DNA of 63,226 nucleotides, the filler included. It is 6 parts of 6 records of this genome, joined end to end, with 100 filler letters (N's around TTAATTAATTAA, not from the genome) between each part and the next. Parts side by side here need not be neighbours in the genome. Positions count along the whole stretch, not along the records: positions 49,406 to 57,057 come from SRR31156797_1804; 5 more parts are not named here. The stretch is one strand, 5' to 3'. A program made the position numbers and the translations under genes. Shown here piece by piece: positions 22,563 through 57,057 of the stretch. How positions within the stretch are numbered: position 1 is the first letter of the stretch; the number at the start of each line of letters is the position of its first letter. A model generated the notes under the pieces. It saw nothing but the letters and a program-made list of their open reading frames with translations. It was not told where the DNA came from and searched no databases.

Positions 22563-23570
22563 ATGAAATCGTTCATCAGGAAGGGATTGGCACTCGGCGT
22601 GGCCCTTGTTGCATCGCAGGCCCTTGCCGTCGGTGCCGGGGCCGGTGAGGTCAGCGGCAAATACAAATGGGGAAGCGGGTCAAGCACCGGAACATTCCAG
22701 ATCATCGTCGGGGCCGTATCCGAAAAGCTGAAAGCGGCGAATCCGGATTTGGACTTCACCCTGGTTCCCGGCGGTTCCGTCGGCAATACCATGCGCATGG
22801 GCGGCAAGGGCGATTTTCCGATCGCGATGATCAGCGGACTGCCGGCGAAGCTCGGGTATCGCGGCGAATTGGTCGTGAAGGGCAAGAAGGTCGGTCCGTA
22901 CAAGGATTTGCGGGGCGTCGCGGCGATCTATTACCAGCACTTCCAGTTCGTCGTGCCGAAGGAATTTCCGGCCGAGTACATCGAAGAGGTCGTCGAAAAG
23001 AAAATGAAGATCAAGCTCGTCCCGGGCGGACCGCGCGGACATCTGGGCGTCATGGCCTTCCGCGATGTGCTGTCGACGATGGGCGTGACCTACAAAGACA
23101 TGGAAGCCTGGGGCGCCAAGGTCATCTATGCGGAGTTCAGCGAAGCCACGACCGGCATCCAGGACGGCGACATCGATATGTTCACGCCCCTAACTGCGGC
23201 GCCGAACGGATCGATCACCAGCCTGGCGACGCAACGGCCGATCAAGTTCCTGAAAATGCGTCCGGAAACCATGGATAAGATGGCCAAGCTCGGGTACTCG
23301 TCCGGCACCCTGCCAGCGGGAAGCTATCCCGGCCAGGATTACGACCTGACGGTAAGCGTCGATTCCGCCTCTTTCTTCGCGCGTTCGGATACGCCGGACG
23401 ATCTGGTCTACGCCGTTGCCAAGTTTGTCGCGTCGAACGAGGACTTCATGAAGTCCATCCATCGTCGCACCAGGGAAGACTTCACGGCCAAGGGCGCGCC
23501 GATGGGGCTTGGCATGCCGCTGCATCCGGGCGCTGAAAAGGCGTACAAGGATCTCGGTCTGATCAAGTAG
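22563..23570 (+). CDS. TAXI family TRAP transporter solute-binding protein
   Basis: Signal peptide, GSSTGTF, GGSVGN, LPAGSYPG, PLHPGAEKAYKDLG. Confidence 0.92.
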   Translation: MKSFIRKGLALGVALVASQALAVGAGAGEVSGKYKWGSGSSTGTFQIIVGAVSEKLKAANPDLDFTLVPGGSVGNTMRMGGKGDFPIAMISGLPAKLGYRGELVVKGKKVGPYKDLRGVAAIYYQHFQFVVPKEFPAEYIEEVVEKKMKIKLVPGGPRGHLGVMAFRDVLSTMGVTYKDMEAWGAKVIYAEFSEATTGIQDGDIDMFTPLTAAPNGSITSLATQRPIKFLKMRPETMDKMAKLGYSSGTLPAGSYPGQDYDLTVSVDSASFFARSDTPDDLVYAVAKFVASNEDFMKSIHRRTREDFTAKGAPMGLGMPLHPGAEKAYKDLGLIK

Positions 23571-49405: not shown

Positions 49406-49434
49406 TCTACGCTTACCCGGAGTCTACGCTTACC
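49406..49434 (+). repeat. Tandem 17-mer: partial copy (49406-49417) plus full copy (49418-49434)
   Basis: TCTACGCTTACC-CGGAGTCTACGCTTACC at the contig start. Confidence 0.92.
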
Positions 49435-49474
49435 TAATCTGAGAAGAGAATCATATTATCCGACAGACTCCTGG
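49435..49474. mobile_element. Right end of a CTAGGAG-type MITE (same family as 50424-50586)
   Basis: TAATCTGAGAAGAGAATCATATTATCCGACAGACTCCTGG aligns to TGATCTGAGAAAAAATCTTACTTTCGGAGAACCTCCTAG. Confidence 0.7.
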
Positions 49475-49482
49475 ACCTGTTC

Positions 49483-50421
49483 ATGAAATTTCCTCTTTTT
49501 TTATGCGTCATCCTCGTCGGGGTGACCCCTTTTTTTTTCCTGGGCGGCCCTGTCTATCATTCACCTCAGTCGTACAAGGCTGCTTGGAATCTTGGTCATA
49601 TCTTTTTTTTCAGTGTTTTCACCATCCTCCTTTTTCCGTATGTAATACGCCAAAAACGCCAACGACACGAACTGCAGCACTTTTTGATGGTGTTTTTGGT
49701 TGTGCTCGTGCTGGGCTTTCTGGTCGAATTGCTGCAGATGTACAGCAGTCACAGATCCCCAGACATGTATGATATCCTGCGTAATCAACTTGGCTGCCTT
49801 GTCGGATATACTCTGGTCACTTTCAAACATAAGGCAGCAGGGGCGAGATGGTGGCTAATGCCATTTCGGTGTTTTGTTTGTGGCTGCCTGCTTTTCGCTC
49901 TTTGGCCTCTTACCCGCAGTCTTGTTGATGAACATATTGCGCAAAAGCAATTCCCGGTACTTGCAGATTTTGAAACACCTTTGGAGCGGTTACGCTGGAT
50001 AAATTCCAGGCAACTCGAAGTTCAAGAGAAATTTGTGCGGCACGGCAAGCGGGCGCTCCAAGTTAAGTTGACCACCGCAACCTATTCTGGCACTACCTTG
50101 TTTAATTTTCCACATAACTGGCACGGTTACAGCATATTGCATTTTAGTGTGTATAACCCCCGGGAACAATCGCTTGAGCTCCACTGCCGCATTCACGACA
50201 GAAAGCACAAGGAAAGCGGTTTCGCCTTTTCTGATCGATTCCATCGAAAATTTACTGTGCATCAGGGGTGGAATGATCTTCAGGTGCCGTTGATGGAAGT
50301 CAAGCAGGCGCCACAATCAAGAAATATGGATATGGGGAATATTGAAAATTTCGGGCTTTTTGTTGTCCGTCAGCCAGAGTCACGTCTTTTGTATTTGGAT
50401 CATATTTATCTCAGCAGGTAA
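49483..50421 (+). CDS. VanZ-like membrane protein with a soluble C-terminal (carbohydrate-binding-like) domain
   Basis: WNLGH, VELLQ...RSPD..DILRNQLG; beta-rich C-terminal domain. Confidence 0.75.
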   Translation: MKFPLFLCVILVGVTPFFFLGGPVYHSPQSYKAAWNLGHIFFFSVFTILLFPYVIRQKRQRHELQHFLMVFLVVLVLGFLVELLQMYSSHRSPDMYDILRNQLGCLVGYTLVTFKHKAAGARWWLMPFRCFVCGCLLFALWPLTRSLVDEHIAQKQFPVLADFETPLERLRWINSRQLEVQEKFVRHGKRALQVKLTTATYSGTTLFNFPHNWHGYSILHFSVYNPREQSLELHCRIHDRKHKESGFAFSDRFHRKFTVHQGWNDLQVPLMEVKQAPQSRNMDMGNIENFGLFVVRQPESRLLYLDHIYLSR

Positions 50422-50423
50422 TC

Positions 50424-50586
50424 CTAGGAGGCCGTCCGAGAATGCCCTTTTCCCCCATATCAGCGTTATTTTTTAAAAATAATGCTCACAGTATCACATA
50501 TACGGTTGCGCTTATTTTTCTCAAATGCCTCGGAGTCTACGCTTACCTGATCTGAGAAAAAATCTTACTTTCGGAGAACCTCCTAG
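50424..50586. mobile_element. MITE-like element with CTAG ends and imperfect TIRs, carrying a 17-mer insert
   Basis: CTAGGAGGCCGTCCGAGAAT vs reverse complement of the right end CTAGGAGGTTCTCCGAAAGT (15/20); internal palindrome; no ORF. Confidence 0.75.
50531..50547 (+). repeat. 17-mer CGGAGTCTACGCTTACC
   Basis: Exact consensus copy inside the MITE. Confidence 0.93.
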
Positions 50587-52037
50587 TGCGTTTTTATCGT
50601 CCCCGATCATTTCTTTCCCTTCTTTTGATGGGCTTTATTCTGGTCTCGCTGCCATTACTTATTGCCTTGTTCAGTTCGGTGCAAATTCTGGACGGTTTGG
50701 TCCAGCAGAGTGCTGTTGCAGTTTTTCGATCGGTCAGCCGGGTTGAAAAGTCGAGACAGCTGATTGATTTGCTGCACGATCAAGAACGCTCGGCACGTCT
50801 TTATAATGTGCTTGGTGAATCCGGCCACCTGCAGGATGTGAATGCGGTTGAGGCTGAGCTTGAGCAAGTCCTCCATCAGTTTTCGGTGAGTAATACGGAT
50901 GAAGAGCTGCTTTTTCTTATAGAAAGTCTACGTGCAAAGGTTCAATACCTTGTTGCTGTATTAAATTTAGCTTCAGGAGGGCCGGAGCAGCGGGAAAATT
51001 CGCAGGAGGCAGCCCTTTTGCTTTATAGCGAAGTGGTTGCTGTTGCCTGGAAGTTGGAAAGCCTCAGTAATGGTTTAATGGGTACCGAGGTGGACGAGAT
51101 TAAAAAGAATGTCCAGCGTAATAAAACTGCTTTGATCTGGCAGGTGTCTGGAATGATAGGTTTTAGTGTCTTGCTCATTGTCATTTTCATTGCCTTGATC
51201 GTTAAGCCGGTAGCCCAAATTGACAAAGGGATTGACCGTTTGGGCGAAGGTGATTTCTCAACACCGATAATAGTGTCTGGGTCTAGGGATCTGGAGGCTT
51301 TAGGTGAGAAACTGGACTGGTTGCGTAAAAGGCTGGATACGCTTGATAAAGAAAAGGTAAAAATGATAGCTCATATCTCCCATGAGCTTAAGACCCCTTT
51401 GGCATCCATTAAAGAAGGAGCCGGATTGTTGAAAGACGGACTGGTGGGGCCATTAAGCAGCTCTCAGGAAGAGGTGGTGAGTATCTTAGACAGTAACTGT
51501 CATAAGTTGCAGCGATTGATTGAAAATATCCTTGATTTTAATATGGCCGAGGCCAGGGAGGCCCCAATTGATCTTGTTGAGACCGACCTTGACAGGCTTA
51601 TAAATGAGGTGGTCGCTGACCATCACAACCCTATGCTTGCCCGCAATATTGCTCTAGACCTTGTTTTGGAACCTGTGAAGGTTGCCTGTAATCCCAAGCA
51701 GATAAAAACCGCATTTGATAACCTGGTGGCCAATGCTATTAAATTTACACCAGATAATGGGGCAATCCATGTCTATATGCGAAAAAAAACAAATACAATT
51801 AATGTGATTGTTGAGGACAGTGGCCCAGGGATAAACGAAGAGGACCGTCCCCAGATATTTCTTCCATTTTTTCAGGGAAAATCGCCACAGCAATCAACGG
51901 TTAAGGGTTCTGGCCTGGGACTTGCAATAAGTAAAGAGTATGTCCAAGGATGTGGTGGGACGCTGCGGTTGCTCCCAAGTCGTTCTGGAGCTCGTTTTTC
52001 GGTAACTTTACCCCGTGTGAAAGGTGTGGCAGTATGA
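50586..52037 (+). CDS. HAMP sensor histidine kinase, GlrK/QseE-like
   Basis: Two TMs, LDWLRKRL, HISHELKTPLASIKEG, NLVANAIKF, DSGPG, GSGLGL; GTG start. Confidence 0.9.
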   Translation: MRFYRPRSFLSLLLMGFILVSLPLLIALFSSVQILDGLVQQSAVAVFRSVSRVEKSRQLIDLLHDQERSARLYNVLGESGHLQDVNAVEAELEQVLHQFSVSNTDEELLFLIESLRAKVQYLVAVLNLASGGPEQRENSQEAALLLYSEVVAVAWKLESLSNGLMGTEVDEIKKNVQRNKTALIWQVSGMIGFSVLLIVIFIALIVKPVAQIDKGIDRLGEGDFSTPIIVSGSRDLEALGEKLDWLRKRLDTLDKEKVKMIAHISHELKTPLASIKEGAGLLKDGLVGPLSSSQEEVVSILDSNCHKLQRLIENILDFNMAEAREAPIDLVETDLDRLINEVVADHHNPMLARNIALDLVLEPVKVACNPKQIKTAFDNLVANAIKFTPDNGAIHVYMRKKTNTINVIVEDSGPGINEEDRPQIFLPFFQGKSPQQSTVKGSGLGLAISKEYVQGCGGTLRLLPSRSGARFSVTLPRVKGVAV

Positions 52038-52627
52038 AATGGTGTAATTTTTTTAGTGTTTTTATTCTTTGTTTGCTGCTGGGTGGATGCGCAGGGTTGT
52101 CCCACAATTCCTCCATATCTAAAGGGGAGCAGTCGCCAACGGTTATTTTTTCACCCACAGATTGTGACAGTCTACTTGCATGCCTTGAGGAGTCTCGTGA
52201 GCTTTCCCGCAAAGACTTTAAGGCCTACTACAAACGTGTGTCCTTGGAGGTAGAGAAAAAAGTTTCTGGCAGTACGCTTCAGCTTATATGCTTAAGTTTA
52301 CATCATTATGCGAGTTACAAGCAGTTCAAGCTCGGAATGGAAACGCTGGAGGAATATATAGAGCTGCATCCAGAGGAAAGGCAAAGTCTGCAGGGCCTGT
52401 ATCGTTTGGTAAAACGTATAAATCAAGAAAAGATTAATCGTTGGTCCCAGCGTAACCGCTTGATGGATGAAAAAGAGACCTTGGAGGAAGAAAACCGTGA
52501 ACTCTTTGACACTGCTGCCGCTCTAAAGAAACAGATCGAACAGGATGGCAAACGCATCAATGAGTTGCAGAAACAGATAGAGCAGCTTAAGAATATTGAA
52601 AATATAATCAAAAACAGAGAGTTATGA
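52034..52627 (+). CDS. Lipoprotein, QseG/YfhG-like
   Basis: Lipobox LGGC, coiled-coil C-terminus QIEQLKNIE; lies between kinase and regulator; ATGA overlap. Confidence 0.7.
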   Translation: MKWCNFFSVFILCLLLGGCAGLSHNSSISKGEQSPTVIFSPTDCDSLLACLEESRELSRKDFKAYYKRVSLEVEKKVSGSTLQLICLSLHHYASYKQFKLGMETLEEYIELHPEERQSLQGLYRLVKRINQEKINRWSQRNRLMDEKETLEEENRELFDTAAALKKQIEQDGKRINELQKQIEQLKNIENIIKNREL

Positions 52628-52656
52628 GCAGGTTCTCCTCTGTAGGGTAATTAGAA

Positions 52657-54009
52657 ATGAGTGATAAACAGTATAAGGTCCTTTTAGTTGATGATGAGCC
52701 GGATCTACTTCGTTTGTGGAAATTGCGGATTCAGTCCAGTGGGTATGATGTATCTGTAGCAGAGTGTGCTGAGGAGGCATTGGCAACATTTGCAGCGGTT
52801 AAGCCTGATGTAATTTTAACAGATTTGCGCATGCCTGGTATCGATGGCATGGCCCTTTTTGAAGCTATCCGCAAGCAAAATAAATCTATCCCTGTCATTA
52901 TTATTACTGCCCACGGTTCTATTCCTGACGCTGTAGAGGCGACCCGTCAGGGAGTCTTTTCCTTTTTGACCAAACCCATTGATGGCAATGAGCTGGTTGA
53001 AGAAATAGAAAAAGCTCTTGAAAGTACTGGGGGGCCTAGAAGTGAGGTCCAGGGAAACAGGGAGGAGTGGAGACAGGATATCGTTTCCCGGAGTGCGGCG
53101 ATGGAGGAGTTGCTGTCACGGGCAAAGCTCGTAGCAGAGACAGATTCAACCATCCTGATTCGCGGAGAAAGTGGGACTGGTAAGGAGCTGCTCGCCATCG
53201 CCTTGCACAGGGCCAGTAATTACCGTAACGGACCGTTTATCCCTGTTAATTGTACTGCCATCCCCGAAAGTTTGCTGGAGTCGGAGCTGTTTGGTCATGT
53301 CAAGGGTTCCTTTACCGGCGCATCGAAAAGTTATGCCGGTTTGTTCCAGTCAGCCCATGACGGAACTTTGTTTTTAGATGAGATTGGTGATATGCCGCTG
53401 CATATACAGGTTAAGCTGCTGCGGGTTTTGCAGGATCGGCAAATTCGACCTGTTGGGAGTGCCCAGCCGGTGCCGGTTAATGTACGCATTATTTCCGCCA
53501 CCCATAGGAACTTGGAAGAGGCTATTGAGGAAAATCAGTTTCGTGAAGATCTGTTCTACCGCTTAAATGTGGTCAGTTTAGAGCTGCCGCCCCTGCATAA
53601 GCGAAAGGAGGACATCCCGCTCCTTGCTGAGCATTTTGTCAGCATCTTAACTGCCAGGGGCGATGGGCAGAGCAAAAAAATTACTCCAGAGGCTATGCAA
53701 ACCCTGCTCGATGCCTCTTGGCCTGGTAATATCCGGCAACTGTATAATGTTGTCGAAAATGCAGTGGCTTTGGCAACTTCTTCCTTTATTACTGAAGAGT
53801 TGCTTTATGATGCTATTAAAACAAATCAGAAAAAAATTATCCCTTTAGCTGAGGCAAGGCGACAGTTTGAGCAACAGTACCTGATCCAGTTGCTGCAAAC
53901 AACGCGCGGTAATGTTTCGCAGGCTGCACGACTCGCTCATCGGAATAGAACTGATTTTTATAAACTGCTTAATAGGCATCATATAGTGCCCTCCCTTTTT
54001 AAGTCGTAA
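52657..54009 (+). CDS. Sigma54-dependent response regulator, GlrR/QseF-like
   Basis: REC, TAHGSIPDAVEAT..GVFSFLTKP, GESGTGKE, ESELFGH.KGSFTGA, RNRTDFYKLLNRH. Confidence 0.9.
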   Translation: MSDKQYKVLLVDDEPDLLRLWKLRIQSSGYDVSVAECAEEALATFAAVKPDVILTDLRMPGIDGMALFEAIRKQNKSIPVIIITAHGSIPDAVEATRQGVFSFLTKPIDGNELVEEIEKALESTGGPRSEVQGNREEWRQDIVSRSAAMEELLSRAKLVAETDSTILIRGESGTGKELLAIALHRASNYRNGPFIPVNCTAIPESLLESELFGHVKGSFTGASKSYAGLFQSAHDGTLFLDEIGDMPLHIQVKLLRVLQDRQIRPVGSAQPVPVNVRIISATHRNLEEAIEENQFREDLFYRLNVVSLELPPLHKRKEDIPLLAEHFVSILTARGDGQSKKITPEAMQTLLDASWPGNIRQLYNVVENAVALATSSFITEELLYDAIKTNQKKIIPLAEARRQFEQQYLIQLLQTTRGNVSQAARLAHRNRTDFYKLLNRHHIVPSLFKS

Positions 54010-54123
54010 AAGGCATCCACGGAGTCTGCGCTTACCTCTTCACGCGGTTACGAATAACCGCATAGAGCGGCTATAGCGGTCATTCATAACTGCGCAAATC
54101 TGGTGTACCTTTGACGACTTAAA
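53998..54123. repeat. Long imperfect palindromic (REP/MITE-like) element carrying a 17-mer insert; overlaps the glrR stop
   Basis: TTTAAGTCGTAAAAGG...CCTTTGACGACTTAAA ends; inner arms GCGGTTACGAATAACCGC / GCGGTCATTCATAACTGC. Confidence 0.78.
54020..54036 (+). repeat. 17-mer variant CGGAGTCTGCGCTTACC
   Basis: 1 mismatch to consensus; absent from the opposite arm of the host palindrome. Confidence 0.9.
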
Positions 54124-54170
54124 GCTTCAAGGCATATGGTATTGTATAGTTATAAACCCCGTGGTTGGCT

Positions 54171-54353
54171 GCAACTGTTCAGCAGTACACCACGGAGTCT
54201 GCGTTTACCTCTACGCACGATCAGGCTGGAACACATAGCTTTACTATAGTTTCCCAACCTGCTTGCACGTATCTGGCAGGAAAAGAAGCAGCGTTACTAT
54301 GGTTTAGTTTTCCAGCCTGCTTACACGAATCTGGAGCAATGATGAACTGTTAC
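54171..54353. repeat. Second palindromic element (GYAACTGTTCA...TGAACTGTTAC) with an internal duplication and a 17-mer insert
   Basis: Terminal inverted repeats; CAGGCTGGAA/TTCCAGCCTG arms; duplicated right-arm segment at 54241-54279 and 54294-54336. Confidence 0.7.
54193..54209 (+). repeat. 17-mer variant CGGAGTCTGCGTTTACC
   Basis: 2 mismatches to consensus; same CCA^TCT context as the 54020 copy. Confidence 0.88.
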
Positions 54354-54376
54354 TGGTCGAGGCTTTGGCGAGTTGT

Positions 54377-54459
54377 TGTTTCTTTTTTGCGACAAAATGG
54401 TGCTGTAATGTAAAAAACATTGCAATATCATTCGGTTGCTATGTTTCTTTTTTGCGACA
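54377..54459. promoter_or_regulatory. Two identical 18-bp GlrR-type enhancer-like sites (54377-54394, 54442-54459)
   Basis: TGTTTCTTTTTTGCGACA twice, matching TGTC-N10-GACA with one mismatch, 65 bp apart. Confidence 0.55.
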
Positions 54460-55311
54460 TGTGTTTGTGGACGGCTGGTGCATAGGCTGGCAGTGGGGGC
54501 AGCAGAATGTCGCTCTTCCTGCCAGTTCGGTTTTTATGAGTGGGGTTTGGCATTGAGGGCAGGGAGCATCTTTTTTCCCGTATACATTGAGCTGGAGTTG
54601 AAAGTAGCCGGGTTGCCCGCTTGACCCGAGGAAATCTGAAATGGTGGTGCCGCCAGCTGCAATCGCTCTTTTAAGGGTAGACTTTGCTGCTTCAATAATT
54701 TTACCCCATTGCTGCTTGGTGATGTGCTGTGCTGGTGTAGTAGGGTGGATGCCAGCCTCAAAAAGCGTTTCATTGGCGTAGATGTTGCCTATCCCGGCAA
54801 CATATTTACTGTTCATCAGGAAAGGTTTTATCGCTAAATTTTTATTGCTCGCCAATTTTAACAGGGATTGGGGAGTGAATTGGTTCCCAAGTGGTTCTAT
54901 CCCTTCCTTTGCAGAAAAAAATCGTTCCATCTCTTTCGCCTTGTCTGGCGGCCAGACCGTCACACTGCCAAACCTTCTGCTGTCGTTCAATCGTATTTCT
55001 TTGCCATTGCTAAGCAGTAATGCCAGGTGGTCATGCTTTGCTTTTGGGGTCTCTTTTTCCAGTAGACTGATCTTGCCGGTCATTCCGAGGTGGATGACCA
55101 GCACAGCTCTGTTTGTCATCCTGAAAAGAAGGTATTTCGCCCGGCGGTCGATGGTGGTTATTACCTGTTGCGTAATAGCCTTTTGAAGTAGCTGAACAGG
55201 CATGGCTGTGCGTAATTTTTTTCCACTCCACCACACATTGACGATTTTTTGGGTAGGGAGATGAGGCAGCAGGCCGAGCCTGGTAACTTCTACTTCCGGC
55301 AGTTCAGGCAT
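54439..55311 (-). CDS. mutM: Formamidopyrimidine-DNA glycosylase
   Basis: MPELPEVE, RRAKYL, HLGMTG, GIGNIYANE, CPQC...CPHCQ zinc finger. Confidence 0.97.
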   Translation of the reverse strand: MPELPEVEVTRLGLLPHLPTQKIVNVWWSGKKLRTAMPVQLLQKAITQQVITTIDRRAKYLLFRMTNRAVLVIHLGMTGKISLLEKETPKAKHDHLALLLSNGKEIRLNDSRRFGSVTVWPPDKAKEMERFFSAKEGIEPLGNQFTPQSLLKLASNKNLAIKPFLMNSKYVAGIGNIYANETLFEAGIHPTTPAQHITKQQWGKIIEAAKSTLKRAIAAGGTTISDFLGSSGQPGYFQLQLNVYGKKDAPCPQCQTPLIKTELAGRATFCCPHCQPMHQPSTNTCRKKET

Positions 55312-56068
55312 GGGGCTCTCCTTCTGTGCATCCAATAATATAATCTTTAAAGGCTGTGATCCTTACCGTGGTCGACTGGGCAAAATGGCCAGCGACGTCA
55401 CATTTCAGTTTCCACGTGTTAGCGCCTTTTTGCTCAACCAGGGTAACTTTTGTGCGGCTAAAGGTTACCGGTTGGTCGTGGAGCAGGCTTTTTTTCACAG
55501 CCTCTTTTGCAACCCAGATGAGAGTGAGGTTGAGTGGCCGGGTGTGTTCGTCTCGGAAAAGCGACTTTTCACTTTGGGCGGTAAATTTTTCAGCAACTGT
55601 CAGCATTTTTGAGGAGATTTGTTGAATATCGATGCCACAGGATTGGCTGTGTGAAACATATGCCGCTGCGTAATCTTTGCTGTGGCTGATGGAAATCGAG
55701 GGAGGGCGATGACTTGCAGCCTCCAGGTGTGGTCTGCCATGTTCGTCTGTTCCTATTGAGAAGGTGTCCGGCGTAAGAGGCGGCCTGCCATTTTTTTTCT
55801 GGAAGAGCTTAAAACAGTATTTCGCTGCCAGTCTGCCACCAAGCCATTCCGTATAGCGTTTTTTATAGCTAAATGTTGCAAGTTTCTGTGTCTCAGCCGG
55901 AGAGAGGTTTTCTGCAAGCAAGGTAGGCAGTTTGTTCTTGGGGTGGAGGTCATTGAGTAGAGAAAGATCTGCTAGGGCAATGGTTGCACTGTCTGCTGCA
56001 AGGAATTGGTATTGGTTGCTCAGTTCTTTCATTTTATGAAAAAACTGCCAGTGGCGATTGGCTGACAT
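55304..56068 (-). CDS. 4'-phosphopantetheinyl transferase superfamily protein
   Basis: GRLAAK, GRP, SISHS, GIDIQ, WVAKEAVKK. Confidence 0.88.
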   Translation of the reverse strand: MSANRHWQFFHKMKELSNQYQFLAADSATIALADLSLLNDLHPKNKLPTLLAENLSPAETQKLATFSYKKRYTEWLGGRLAAKYCFKLFQKKNGRPPLTPDTFSIGTDEHGRPHLEAASHRPPSISISHSKDYAAAYVSHSQSCGIDIQQISSKMLTVAEKFTAQSEKSLFRDEHTRPLNLTLIWVAKEAVKKSLLHDQPVTFSRTKVTLVEQKGANTWKLKCDVAGHFAQSTTVRITAFKDYIIGCTEGEPHA

Positions 56069-56199
56069 TTTTTTAAGCCTGTGGTTATAGATTGCAAATT
56101 ATAATCTGATTACGTAAAGTACCAGCCGGTTATCTATCTGTGTAGGCAGAGGTGGTTGATTTTATTTCTCTTTTAAACCCGGAAAAACCAAGAAGTTCC

Positions 56200-56216
56200 G
56201 GTAAACGAAGACTCCG
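56200..56216 (-). repeat. 17-mer variant CGGAGTCTTCGTTTACC
   Basis: GGTAAACGAAGACTCCG on the plus strand; 2 mismatches; intergenic. Confidence 0.8.
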
Positions 56217-56344
56217 ATCTGTCTCCCGATGCCCCCCAAAAAACTGATTTTCATGGGTAGGTAGAAATTATGACGTATTTTTATTATCGCACGCTCTCGT
56301 GTGTTAGACGCCTATTTTTTTAAATATAATCAATCCCATTTACT

Positions 56345-56899
56345 ATGCCTGTTTTTGCCGATTTTTCTTTGTTTGATATTATTGTTGGTTTGATTCTGCT
56401 GTTTTTTTTGGTGAGGGGGCTTTGGATAGGTTTTGTTCATCAACTGGCGGCGTTTTGCGCCCTGGTCGGCGGGTACTGGCTGGCAGCTCATTATCACGGG
56501 GAGATAGCACCTTTTGCGGCGCGTTTTCTGGAAAATCCCAAATTAATTTTTATTGTCAGCTTTGTCTGTATTTTTCTTGTTGCGGCAATGGCCTTTGGCC
56601 TGTTGGGTAAATTGCTTCGCCGGGTAATGGAGATTACGCTGATGGGGTGGTTTGACCGCCTGCTTGGGGGTGGGCTTGGGTTGGTCAAAGGGGCAGTTGT
56701 TACCTCGCTTCTTTATATGTTTCTTGCCTCGAGCCTTTCTGGTTCCAATGATGTGTTGAGAAAGTCAATGAGTGCGCCGTACCTGGAGTTGGGTGCTGCT
56801 CAGCTGCAGACACTTATTAATGATCCAAGGCTGCGTGACTATTTTAAACCGAAAAAGCCTGCCATAGAGGAACCCAGTTCCACCTTGGATTCCTCATGA
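56345..56899 (+). CDS. CvpA (colicin V production) family membrane protein
   Basis: RGLWIGFV, DRLLGGGLGLVKG, SAPYL. Confidence 0.9.
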   Translation: MPVFADFSLFDIIVGLILLFFLVRGLWIGFVHQLAAFCALVGGYWLAAHYHGEIAPFAARFLENPKLIFIVSFVCIFLVAAMAFGLLGKLLRRVMEITLMGWFDRLLGGGLGLVKGAVVTSLLYMFLASSLSGSNDVLRKSMSAPYLELGAAQLQTLINDPRLRDYFKPKKPAIEEPSSTLDSS

Positions 56900-57034
56900 G
56901 CATTTTGTTATTTTTGGAAAAGAGTAGTAGCTTCAATTTCATACTATTAAAACCAATCAGATGTAAAATTAACAAAATGTTCACCGAAGGTCAGTCCATG
57001 CGGTACCATCTTCTTCAGTATTTTTGTAGTAAAA

Positions 57035-57051
57035 GGTAAGCGTAGACTCCG
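57035..57051 (-). repeat. 17-mer consensus copy, 6 bp from the contig end
   Basis: GGTAAGCGTAGACTCCG on the plus strand. Confidence 0.92.
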
Positions 57052-57057
57052 ATAGTC

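Follow-up and report, generated by a model that had tools for sequence, protein, structure and literature searches.

The window considered here is a stretch of 63,226 nucleotides (nt), made up of six contigs joined by N/TTAATTAATTAA linkers, and the subject of this analysis is a 17-nt sequence, CGGAGTCTACGCTTACC (general form CGGAGTCTNCGCTTACC; the 17-mer below), that recurs in one of them. The GC content of the six contigs ranges from 0.458 to 0.599, a spread which suggests that the bin is possibly a mix of organisms. The contig at positions 49406-57057 (7.65 kb) has the lowest GC content of the six and is the only one with genuine copies of the 17-mer. Open reading frames around the copies encode a VanZ-like protein, a histidine kinase, a hypothetical protein, a sigma-54 activator, Fpg, a phosphopantetheinyl transferase and CvpA, and all six full copies are located in the intergenic stretches between these frames. 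The contig begins within a tandem pair, which consists of a partial copy and the first full one, and its end falls 6 nt past the last copy. Three of the full copies are exact and the other three carry one or two mismatches (Table 1); the chance expectation from shuffles is 0.03 matches at ≤3 mismatches.

An earlier, sequence-only reading of this window had listed seven copies (one of them partial) on both strands, with 0-2 mismatches and all intergenic, and the recurrence of the 17-mer in the contig is confirmed as real in each of these particulars. That reading had also placed no copies in the other five contigs, which is correct for genuine copies, but an additional match with two mismatches does occur at position 23351 on the minus strand. 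This match lies inside a 335-aa NMT1-like coding frame, and it was therefore set aside as unrelated to the family. No target-site duplication, terminal inverted repeat or internal hairpin is seen at any copy in the contig, again as first described, and a search of the contig against Rfam produced no match at E values up to 1.

The intergenic stretches that hold the copies belong to repeat families in their own right. Contig C147 of Desulfogranum marinum (genome G003) is syntenic with the whole window contig at 80-88% identity, and in that genome the copy-bearing stretches are members of multicopy families. Four such host families can be counted, rather than the three hairpin or MITE (miniature inverted-repeat transposable element) families of the sequence-only reading: MITE2 (hosting the copies at 49418 and 50531), a palindromic superfamily (54020 and 54193), MITE3 (56200) and MITE1 (57035). 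Terminal inverted repeats are present in the hosts MITE1 and MITE2. At least 20 copies of MITE1 are found in D. marinum, and no transposase was identified for this family. Sequencing depth in the probable source run goes up over exactly the host-repeat stretches, which argues that the contig ends are ordinary repeat-induced assembly breaks.

Table 1. Copies of the 17-mer and their host repeats in the contig at positions 49406-57057.
Feature	Position	Strand	Evidence or remark
Partial 17-mer copy (3' 12 nt, TCTACGCTTACC)	49406..49417	+	Sequence; at contig start, in tandem with next copy
Exact 17-mer, centre base A	49418..49434	+	Sequence match
Exact 17-mer in 23-nt loop of 12-bp hairpin (arms 50515-50526 and 50550-50561)	50531..50547	+	
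17-mer with 1 mismatch (centre G), in left arm of P1 only	54020..54036	+	Clean 17-bp insertion relative to D. marinum ortholog
17-mer with 2 mismatches to the A form (centre G plus C12T)	54193..54209	+	Orthologous to L168:5079 of D. marinum
17-mer with 2 mismatches (centre T plus one mismatch)	56200..56216	-	Sequence match
Exact 17-mer, left edge of MITE1 central loop	57035..57051	-	
MITE2, right-hand part (...TRATCTGAGAA...CTCCTRG), cut by contig start	49406..49474	+	Downstream sequence as at 50531; D. marinum ortholog unrelated here
Complete MITE2 (ends CTAGGAGG...CCTCCTAG), host of 50531 copy	50424..50586	+	Family multicopy in G002-G005
Empty insertion site in MITE2, GAATGCCCTTT^T...	50450..50451	+	Filled in relatives L010, L033, L067
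Empty insertion site in MITE2, GTGATAC^TGTGAGC (minus strand)	50490..50491	-	Filled in L053, L067, L072, L085
Palindromic element P1 (outer arms 53998-54013 and 54108-54123)	53998..54123	.	
Element P2, superfamily GTAAC..TTCAGCAGCAC..CCA[17]TCT.CGCACGATCAGG	about 54173..54276	+	Multicopy in G003
MITE3 copy, host of 56200	56091..56267	.	Multicopy in G003
MITE1, left two-thirds, cut by contig end	56889..57057	+	Family of about 235 bp, ends CTAGCCCGAATTTCTCATGA, variable AT-rich left half

Evidence on the nature of the 17-mer comes from homologous sites that exist both with and without it. At the locus of the 54020 copy the window reads GGCATCCA[17]TCTTCACG, with the 17-mer shown as [17], while D. 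marinum reads GGCACCCA|TCTTCACG in an element that is otherwise about 90% identical. The sequence-only reading had stated that the copies at 54020 and 54193 each occupy one arm of a palindrome, and that their removal restores the symmetry of the arms. For 54020 this is upheld by the D. marinum ortholog, which lacks exactly 17 bp, whereas the copy at 54193 is common to the window and D. marinum. The ortholog of the region in genome G002 is without both P1 and P2, and it therefore gives no polarity for the difference at 54020.

The same comparison was made globally for 253 distinct non-tandem copies, each with ≤2 mismatches, drawn from fetched loci that total about 1.1 Mb. A site counted as empty when, with the 17-mer taken out, the flanks of the copy gave an ungapped match at 75% identity or better that reached at least 18 nt past the junction in both directions. 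Empty homologous sites were found for 116 of the 253 copies, compared to 9 of 253 and 6 of 253 when control deletions of 17 nt were placed 25 nt upstream or downstream. Eleven of the best empty sites reach 90% identity or more across 70 nt or longer, and the top one is 95.6% identical over 90 nt. Empty host elements, the absence of which the sequence-only reading had named as fatal to its proposal, thus exist in good number.

Individual host families provide a closer view. An alignment of MITE1 was built from 17 of the 20 fetched D. marinum copies (L176-L195; the truncated or deleted variants L177, L187 and L190 were dropped), and the element proved to have two symmetric sites, one at the left edge of the loop (in minus sense) and one at the right edge (in plus sense). 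Because of the dyad symmetry of the element, these two sites amount to the same geometry on either strand. Most members are filled at the left site only, L181 and L193 at the right site only, L186, L191 and L194 at both, and L179 at neither. MITE2 has three sites, one of which is filled in the complete window copy while the other two are empty there and filled in other genomes. Another host is the group II intron L045, in which the 17-mer interrupts domain I at a point where D. marinum copies of 74% identity (L202 and L204) read CCCT|TGC; an insertion at this position may disable the intron. Group II introns were seen in Desulfobulbaceae genomes at L045:3977-4850 (minus strand), L202, L204 and L199, with Rfam matches to D1-D4 and to domain V/VI.

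Flanking sequences are diverse, with 145 copies falling into 77 upstream clusters, 72 downstream clusters and 96 combinations of the two. These data support the conclusion that the 17-mer is a discrete, self-contained insertion unit that turns up in unrelated elements without any duplication, and the core of the sequence-only proposal, a minimal mobile unit in unrelated elements, is borne out to that extent.

One alternative is that the 17-mer is a fixed module of mosaic intergenic repeats, comparable to the BIME linkers or neisserial dRS3 repeats discussed below, and not mobile by itself but spread by hitch-hiking, gene conversion, template switching or recombination, with no dedicated enzyme. 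Many copies do lie in a few large superfamilies, as illustrated by the largest upstream cluster: it accounts for 24 of the 145 copies and is connected by way of the 17-mer with 11 distinct downstream clusters, a pattern that resembles the reassortment of modules. Furthermore, the copy at 54020 is only 173 bp from a related element with a G-centred unit and similar flanks (CCA[17]TCT), and a composite repeat of about 210 bp in genome G001 builds three copies into a nested palindrome. Recombination among mosaics does not readily account for the fact that the transferred piece keeps the same boundaries, with no flank moved along, nor for the control deletions, which show that the indel is specific to the 17-mer. 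The contexts are also mutually dissimilar, including the MITE1 loop, MITE2, a group II intron and intergenic hairpins of phages. Finally, recombination alone would leave unexplained both a consensus that stays stable across a whole bacterial class despite the decay of copies and the presence of one target logo, T^TG, at unrelated sites, and we regard this alternative as unlikely.

A flank logo, one of the checks proposed at the outset, reveals the target preference at filled junctions: T in 65% of cases at position -1 (G in only 2%), T in 92% at +1, and either G (58%) or C (27%) at +2, for a total of 85%. The same logo is found at 183 empty sites (T 56%, T 72% and G 43%). Since empty and filled sites share the T|T-G/C pattern, the T and the TG belong to the target and nothing is duplicated upon insertion. 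The orientation of the 17-mer is fixed relative to the asymmetric T^TG target, and this sequence preference is the recurrent feature of the sites.

The unit itself has a bipartite layout, described here, in which two conserved 8-nt ends, CGGAGTCT and CGCTTACC, flank a free centre. In the 17-nt form the centre is position 9, where A, T and G are all common, even inside one genome. The spacing between the two 8-mers is 1 nt in 244 cases, 2 nt in 6, 7 nt in 8, 8 nt in 8, 9 nt in 19 and 11 nt in 4; only three isolated cases were found with spacings of 12-300 nt, and reversed control halves gave none. The long forms of 23-27 nt often resemble CGCTY stutters, with a centre that tends to start with C and finish with T, and identical long variants (e.g. 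those with spacer CGTTCCT; 23-mers and 25-mers) recur in several contexts and genomes.

Units are also found in tandem arrays of 2-4 with an exact 17-nt period (L029, L074 with four, L096, L099, L105, and G302 with three). Centre bases are mixed within some arrays, with T followed by A in L099 and the series A, A, G, G in L096, which argues for repeated insertion rather than slippage alone. The arrays fit the re-use of the ACC|TG junction of an existing copy as a target, since CTG is the second commonest triplet at empty sites.

Two conserved halves around a centre of 1 or 7-11 nt could also be read as the excision footprint of a larger transposon with ends CGGAGTCT... and ...CGCTTACC, the centre being repair filler; the long centres, often C...T, look as if more of an end had been retained. 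The sequence-only reading had listed such an excision scar among its suggestions, and the search for a parent element offers it no support. No pair of solo halves 60-4000 nt apart occurs in the roughly 1.1 Mb of copy-enriched loci, where the spacings of 12-300 nt were limited to the three cases above. Genes between pairs of copies 1.3-2.6 kb apart in G001 encode an MFS transporter, a CCG/Fer4 protein, a GGDEF protein, an acyltransferase, an M20 peptidase, IspDF and a release factor. In addition, the recurrence of identical long forms in different contexts is unlike repair filler, and to our knowledge such footprints are not known for bacterial transposons. All told, a footprint origin is very unlikely. 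An insertion sequence (IS) bounded by 17-mers was likewise rejected, because the genes between the G001 pairs are of the housekeeping kind and no transposase is found among the neighbours of copies; in the scanned loci, no IS is bounded by the 17-mer or its halves.

Only 24 of 160 copies lie in long open frames, compared with 78% of random positions, and there is no orientation bias toward adjacent genes (59 versus 51, and 56 versus 49); the two results together argue for a DNA-level element and not a sense-specific RNA signal. When the MITE1 alignment is inspected by eye, diverged members show about the same divergence in their copies as in the MITE core next to them. Single copies thus appear to be under no special constraint, because they decay like the neighbouring core.

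The sequence-only reading had further proposed an enzyme that acts at hairpins, and here the structural evidence did not follow. The predicted structure at the emptied junction resembles that of the background (unpaired on both sides, '..', in 43.5% versus 37.8%), and flank-to-flank pairing that encloses the site with 10 pairs or more shows no more than a modest excess (31% versus 18%). Preferential targeting of hairpins or hairpin loops, weak or absent, is therefore not supported, and the association with palindromic repeats may just reflect tolerated places combined with the T|TG preference.

The range of the 17-mer was surveyed by evenly sampling the class to which D. marinum belongs, the Desulfobulbia; 401 species genomes were searched for CGGAGTCTNCGCTTACC at ≤1 mismatch. 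The 17-mer is present in 219 of them, at 1-236 copies per genome and with 5,224 matches overall, while reversed controls were near zero and 182 genomes have none; counts in relatives were another of the checks suggested with the original observation. Density peaks at 236 copies in 2.8 Mb, about one per 12 kb. Exact matches were also sought in an even sample of the phylum, where 2 of 201 genomes were positive, both of them Desulfobulbia, and all 199 others were negative. An exact scan with one genome per species detected at least 120 stretches with the 17-mer. Among the 80 matches listed, only two are outside, in metagenome-assembled genomes of Vicinamibacterales and Phycisphaerae with one copy each, and the rest are assigned to Desulfobulbales or labelled only as Thermodesulfobacteriota, 'Deltaproteobacteria' or Proteobacteria. 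Five genomes contain 227, 89, 177, 13 and 66 copies at ≤2 mismatches (reversed control, 0-2), and the copies of G001 are interleaved on the two strands, 55 forward and 62 reverse. A full-text search found no published paper that contains the 17-mer sequence, and among the papers listed for repeats in Desulfobulb*, none mentions these bacteria.

Isolates with the 17-mer include Desulfogranum marinum DSM 2058, Desulforhopalus IMCC35007 and strain B35. The occurrence in at least 219 species genomes, isolates included, argues that the 17-mer is not a library adapter or primer, which the sequence-only reading had raised as a possible undoing of its proposal. An origin in assembly, adapter or primer artefacts might be suspected from the position of both contig ends in or beside a copy. 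This suspicion can practically be dismissed, given the presence of the 17-mer in more than 200 independent assemblies, its diverged copies, its conservation at orthologous loci and its occurrence in the interior of long contigs; assemblies ordinarily break at multicopy repeats, and depth rises there.

The 17-mer also occurs in phage contigs. The N-centred pattern was found in 18 stretches of IMG/VR, a number that is near chance by a rough estimate of the size of that collection. A 49-kb tailed-phage contig (IMGVR_UViG_3300033153_011881; L219, L223 and L225) carries four copies, in similar intergenic hairpin elements and co-oriented with terminase, major head and tail genes. Related phage contigs (L222, L224, L227, L228, L230 and L233; L217/L229; L220/L231) have retained a single T-centred copy, which is bordered by runs of the heptamer-like repeats CTCTGYG and TTCGTTA. 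In L228, the only contig annotated, this copy lies between the large terminase gene and a head-tail adaptor or portal-region gene, a position that one might speculate is typical of packaging-site regions. Phages could conceivably carry the unit between lineages. Each copy in the 49-kb contig lies ahead of an AT-rich hairpin of TTCGNTT-type short repeats.

The conserved phage locus between terminase and portal-region genes would fit if the 17-mer were a selected functional signal, such as a protein-binding, DNA-uptake or packaging site, with the insertions being incidental. A signal would also suit a sequence that is identical across the class, absent outside it and equally frequent on both strands. 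Known uptake signals occur about once per kb, and the density of the 17-mer falls far from that figure, with 236 copies at most in a 2.8-Mb genome and none at all in nearly half of the class sample. The decay of copies at the rate of their flanks, as judged by eye in the MITE1 alignment, likewise speaks against selection on single copies, and copies arise as clean 17-bp indels rather than by the point mutations that are usual for uptake signals. A functional signal is thus a highly improbable explanation.

Another way to obtain strand-specific insertion without duplication would be the writing of copies from a short RNA template by a reverse transcriptase (RT) at a nicked T^TG, in the manner of telomerase or target-primed reverse transcription. 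The exact period-17 arrays (L074 and G302), extra partial 3' halves, the CGCTY stutters in long forms and a consensus that stays constant despite the decay of copies could all be products of such a template. A single template would not give the A, T and G centres that coexist in one genome, and even at one site, and the low-copy genomes show no conserved master locus among 15 loci. A link between RT genes and the 17-mer, one suggestion of the sequence-only reading, finds no support: RVT_1 genes were detected in 16 of 25 genomes with high copy numbers and in 15 of 25 with none, and nine fetched RT loci have no 17-mer (three of them resemble elements that host a copy in other genomes). Writing from RNA is accordingly improbable. 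A comparison with the rrn operon of G001 detected no complementarity to rRNA of 9 nt or more.

Some genomes were found to be rich in the genes concerned. G002 has 22 RVT_1 matches in total, fourteen of which (thirteen of 476 aa and one of 463 aa) lie on one strand within about 150 kb (G002:C1:65207-211387) of one contig and have identical or near-identical scores. G046 has 16 RVT_1 and 11 Y1 transposase matches, yet the 17-mer is absent from it.

We lean, with some reserve, toward reading the 17-mer as a minute, non-autonomous piece of mobile DNA that is moved by a dedicated activity and forms a Desulfobulbia analogue of the small dispersed repeats (SDRs) of cyanobacteria. Precise, scar-free and oriented insertion at a short asymmetric target, constant ends around a free centre, sublineages of variants that each spread, and neutral decay beneath a consensus that is stable class-wide are the traits to be expected of a non-autonomous transposon mobilized in trans. 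The stability of the consensus across the whole class implies a trans-acting, sequence-specific machine that is still making copies. We infer the action of an enzyme on these grounds; the type of the enzyme, a single-stranded intermediate and the choice between copying and cutting can be proposed only conditionally.

Several results weigh against this reading and temper our confidence in it. The gene neighbours of copies are limited to two-component, ABC and housekeeping genes, with no linked enzyme. Genes for Y1/HUH transposases, among the candidates of the sequence-only reading (as RAYT/TnpA-Y1 nucleases), are present in 24 of 25 high-copy genomes and in 22 of 25 zero-copy genomes, and none of 12 fetched Y1 loci has a 17-mer within 1.5 kb. 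In addition, a unit of 17 nt offers a classical IS200/IS605-type enzyme no hairpin to grip. Some of the empty matches fall in the opposite arm of the same palindrome or in a related family, where gene conversion could also move the unit. Most copies are inherited along with their host repeat, so that truly independent insertions must be far fewer than the copy number. No indel was found at copies in one probable source run, an analysis of contigs only in which rare alleles are invisible, and no replication-strand bias is visible in G001, where such a bias would be scrambled by hitch-hiking in MITEs.

The link to RAYT or Y1 enzymes was rejected on two of these results, since Y1 genes are not adjacent to copies and their occurrence does not follow that of the 17-mer. 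No inverted-repeat arrays surround the two RAYT-like genes of G001. A 737-bp repeat in the same genome (L147:1409-2145 and L150), with ends CGGGGACA...TGTCCCCG, carries a gene for a Y1-transposase-like protein of 219-224 aa; its two copies are 99% identical, and the repeat is unrelated to the 17-mer.

If the 17-mer is indeed moved by a dedicated activity, a plausible course of events can be sketched. The machine would recognize the two 8-nt ends, around a centre of 1 nt or of 7-11 nt in the 23-27-nt forms, and selection would act only on what the machine must recognize. The unit would be written precisely between the T and the TG of a loose target, in one orientation, with no target bases gained or lost. 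It would land mostly in intergenic repeats, where it is tolerated, and would then be amplified together with the MITEs. Where a further unit entered the ACC^TG junction of an earlier copy, a tandem array would result, and individual copies would subsequently decay neutrally. Because centre variants coexist, DNA copies are favoured as the source over a single RNA template. The likeliest machine in our view would be a strand-specific nuclease-ligase that acts on single-stranded DNA, of the HUH type in a broad sense, and that copies from existing DNA copies, but this identification is doubtful. In a bolder and tentative form of the proposal, the 17-mer may be the smallest bacterial transposable unit yet seen, with two 8-nt ends and 1-11 nt between them, inserted free of scars at T^TG by a trans-acting, undescribed machine, conserved in Desulfobulbia and their phages or repeatedly transferred among them, that is neither a classical Y1/RAYT enzyme nor a recognizable RT.

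The closest precedent for such a unit is the SDRs, which are nested in other repeats. Elhai et al. (2008, Genome Res 18:1484) reportedly described SDR4, SDR5 and SDR6 of heterocystous cyanobacteria. One account characterizes SDRs as dispersed units of about 20 nt that are present in tandem in varying copy number and are suspected of being mobile (PMC2884548), and another mentions the insertion of SDR5 precisely between the third and fourth bases of HIP1 (PMC4390886). A third reports no SDR-like repeat outside Nostocaceae among the HIP1-rich cyanobacteria examined (PMC5861425), and a 2026 paper has the function and mechanism of SDRs as still unknown (PMC13756078). The 17-mer resembles these repeats in being small, noncoding and dispersed, in its arrays of 2-4 units and in its precise insertion at a defined target. 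It differs in length (17 nt, with variants of 23-27 nt, versus 21-27 nt), in target (T^TG versus HIP1) and in its occurrence in another phylum, with a consensus that is class-wide and shared by phage contigs where SDRs are limited to a clade. The sequences are presumably unrelated, and because the samples searched contain the 17-mer in Desulfobulbia only, any membership among the SDRs would be by behaviour and not by descent.

Other short repeats provide partial parallels. The neisserial dRS3 repeats in Neisseria intergenic mosaic elements are invariant repeats some 20 bp long that number in the hundreds, lie in both orientations and separate repeat modules; dRS3 forms a palindromic pair of ends and serves as an integration site for phage and IS110-type elements. 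Like dRS3, the 17-mer is a short fixed repeat that separates diverse modules of intergenic mosaics in both orientations, but it is asymmetric, and no element was found integrated in it. The linker motifs outside the palindromic units of E. coli bacterial interspersed mosaic elements (BIMEs), named S, L, l, r, s, A and B, are tied to one family of RAYT-linked repetitive extragenic palindromes (REPs). BIME structure is outlined in PMC2817692. Both the linkers and the 17-mer are fixed short motifs between inverted palindromic units, whereas the 17-mer has dozens of unrelated hosts, a clean presence or absence and no link to a RAYT.

The classical mobile elements fit less well. Elements of the IS200/IS605 family and palindrome-associated transposable elements (PATEs) share with the 17-mer a strand-specific insertion by a short target, in fixed orientation and without duplication; they need subterminal hairpins and a target of 4-5 nt on their 5' side, while the 17-mer has no hairpin and only a weak upstream target (T 65% at -1), its main signal being downstream (T 92%, then G or C 85%). 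REPINs, which like the 17-mer are short, non-autonomous and intergenic, are mobilized in trans by a single-copy RAYT gene, and mobilization in trans would be a further likeness. REPs are hairpins with a GTAG or CGTC tag that flank the RAYT gene, and the 17-mer lacks self-complementarity and any such features. From MITEs it is set apart by having no terminal inverted repeats, no duplication and a length of 17 nt versus about 50-500 bp.

We know of no accepted mechanism in the theory of mobile DNA by which a sequence of 17-27 nt could move without a hairpin, inverted repeats or duplication, and the cyanobacterial SDRs are the only comparable case known to us. The 17-mer thus offers a second, independent and far more widely sampled system in which the enzyme and the rules of SDR-type movement could be sought, and it is of high interest because it brings better sampling to a mechanistic question that has long been open. 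The available material consists of a majority of the sampled species genomes of a class, isolates from culture collections, phage copies, pairs of filled and empty sites, a target logo and the layout of ends plus free centre. If an undescribed trans-acting machine exists, the problem of SDR movement would become accessible to comparative genomics and to a simple insertion trap, and a machine that could be programmed by sequence, or that acted on single strands, would make an interesting tool for placing short insertions without scars. On the practical side, short-read assemblies of Desulfobulbia break at these units and at the MITEs that host them, as happened at both ends of the window contig, and the repeats could serve as lineage markers.

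Two minor observations concern the intergenic repeats themselves. The composite of about 210 bp in G001 (strain B35; loci L121-L135), which starts with CCCTCACGGGATGG... and is present in many copies, is a nested palindromic structure that contains a plus copy of the 17-mer, a 25-nt long form in the apical loop and a minus copy. In the window, the motif TTTCTTTTTTGCGACA occurs twice at 54380-54460, upstream of the fpg end of the intergenic region, and it is matched in the G002 ortholog.

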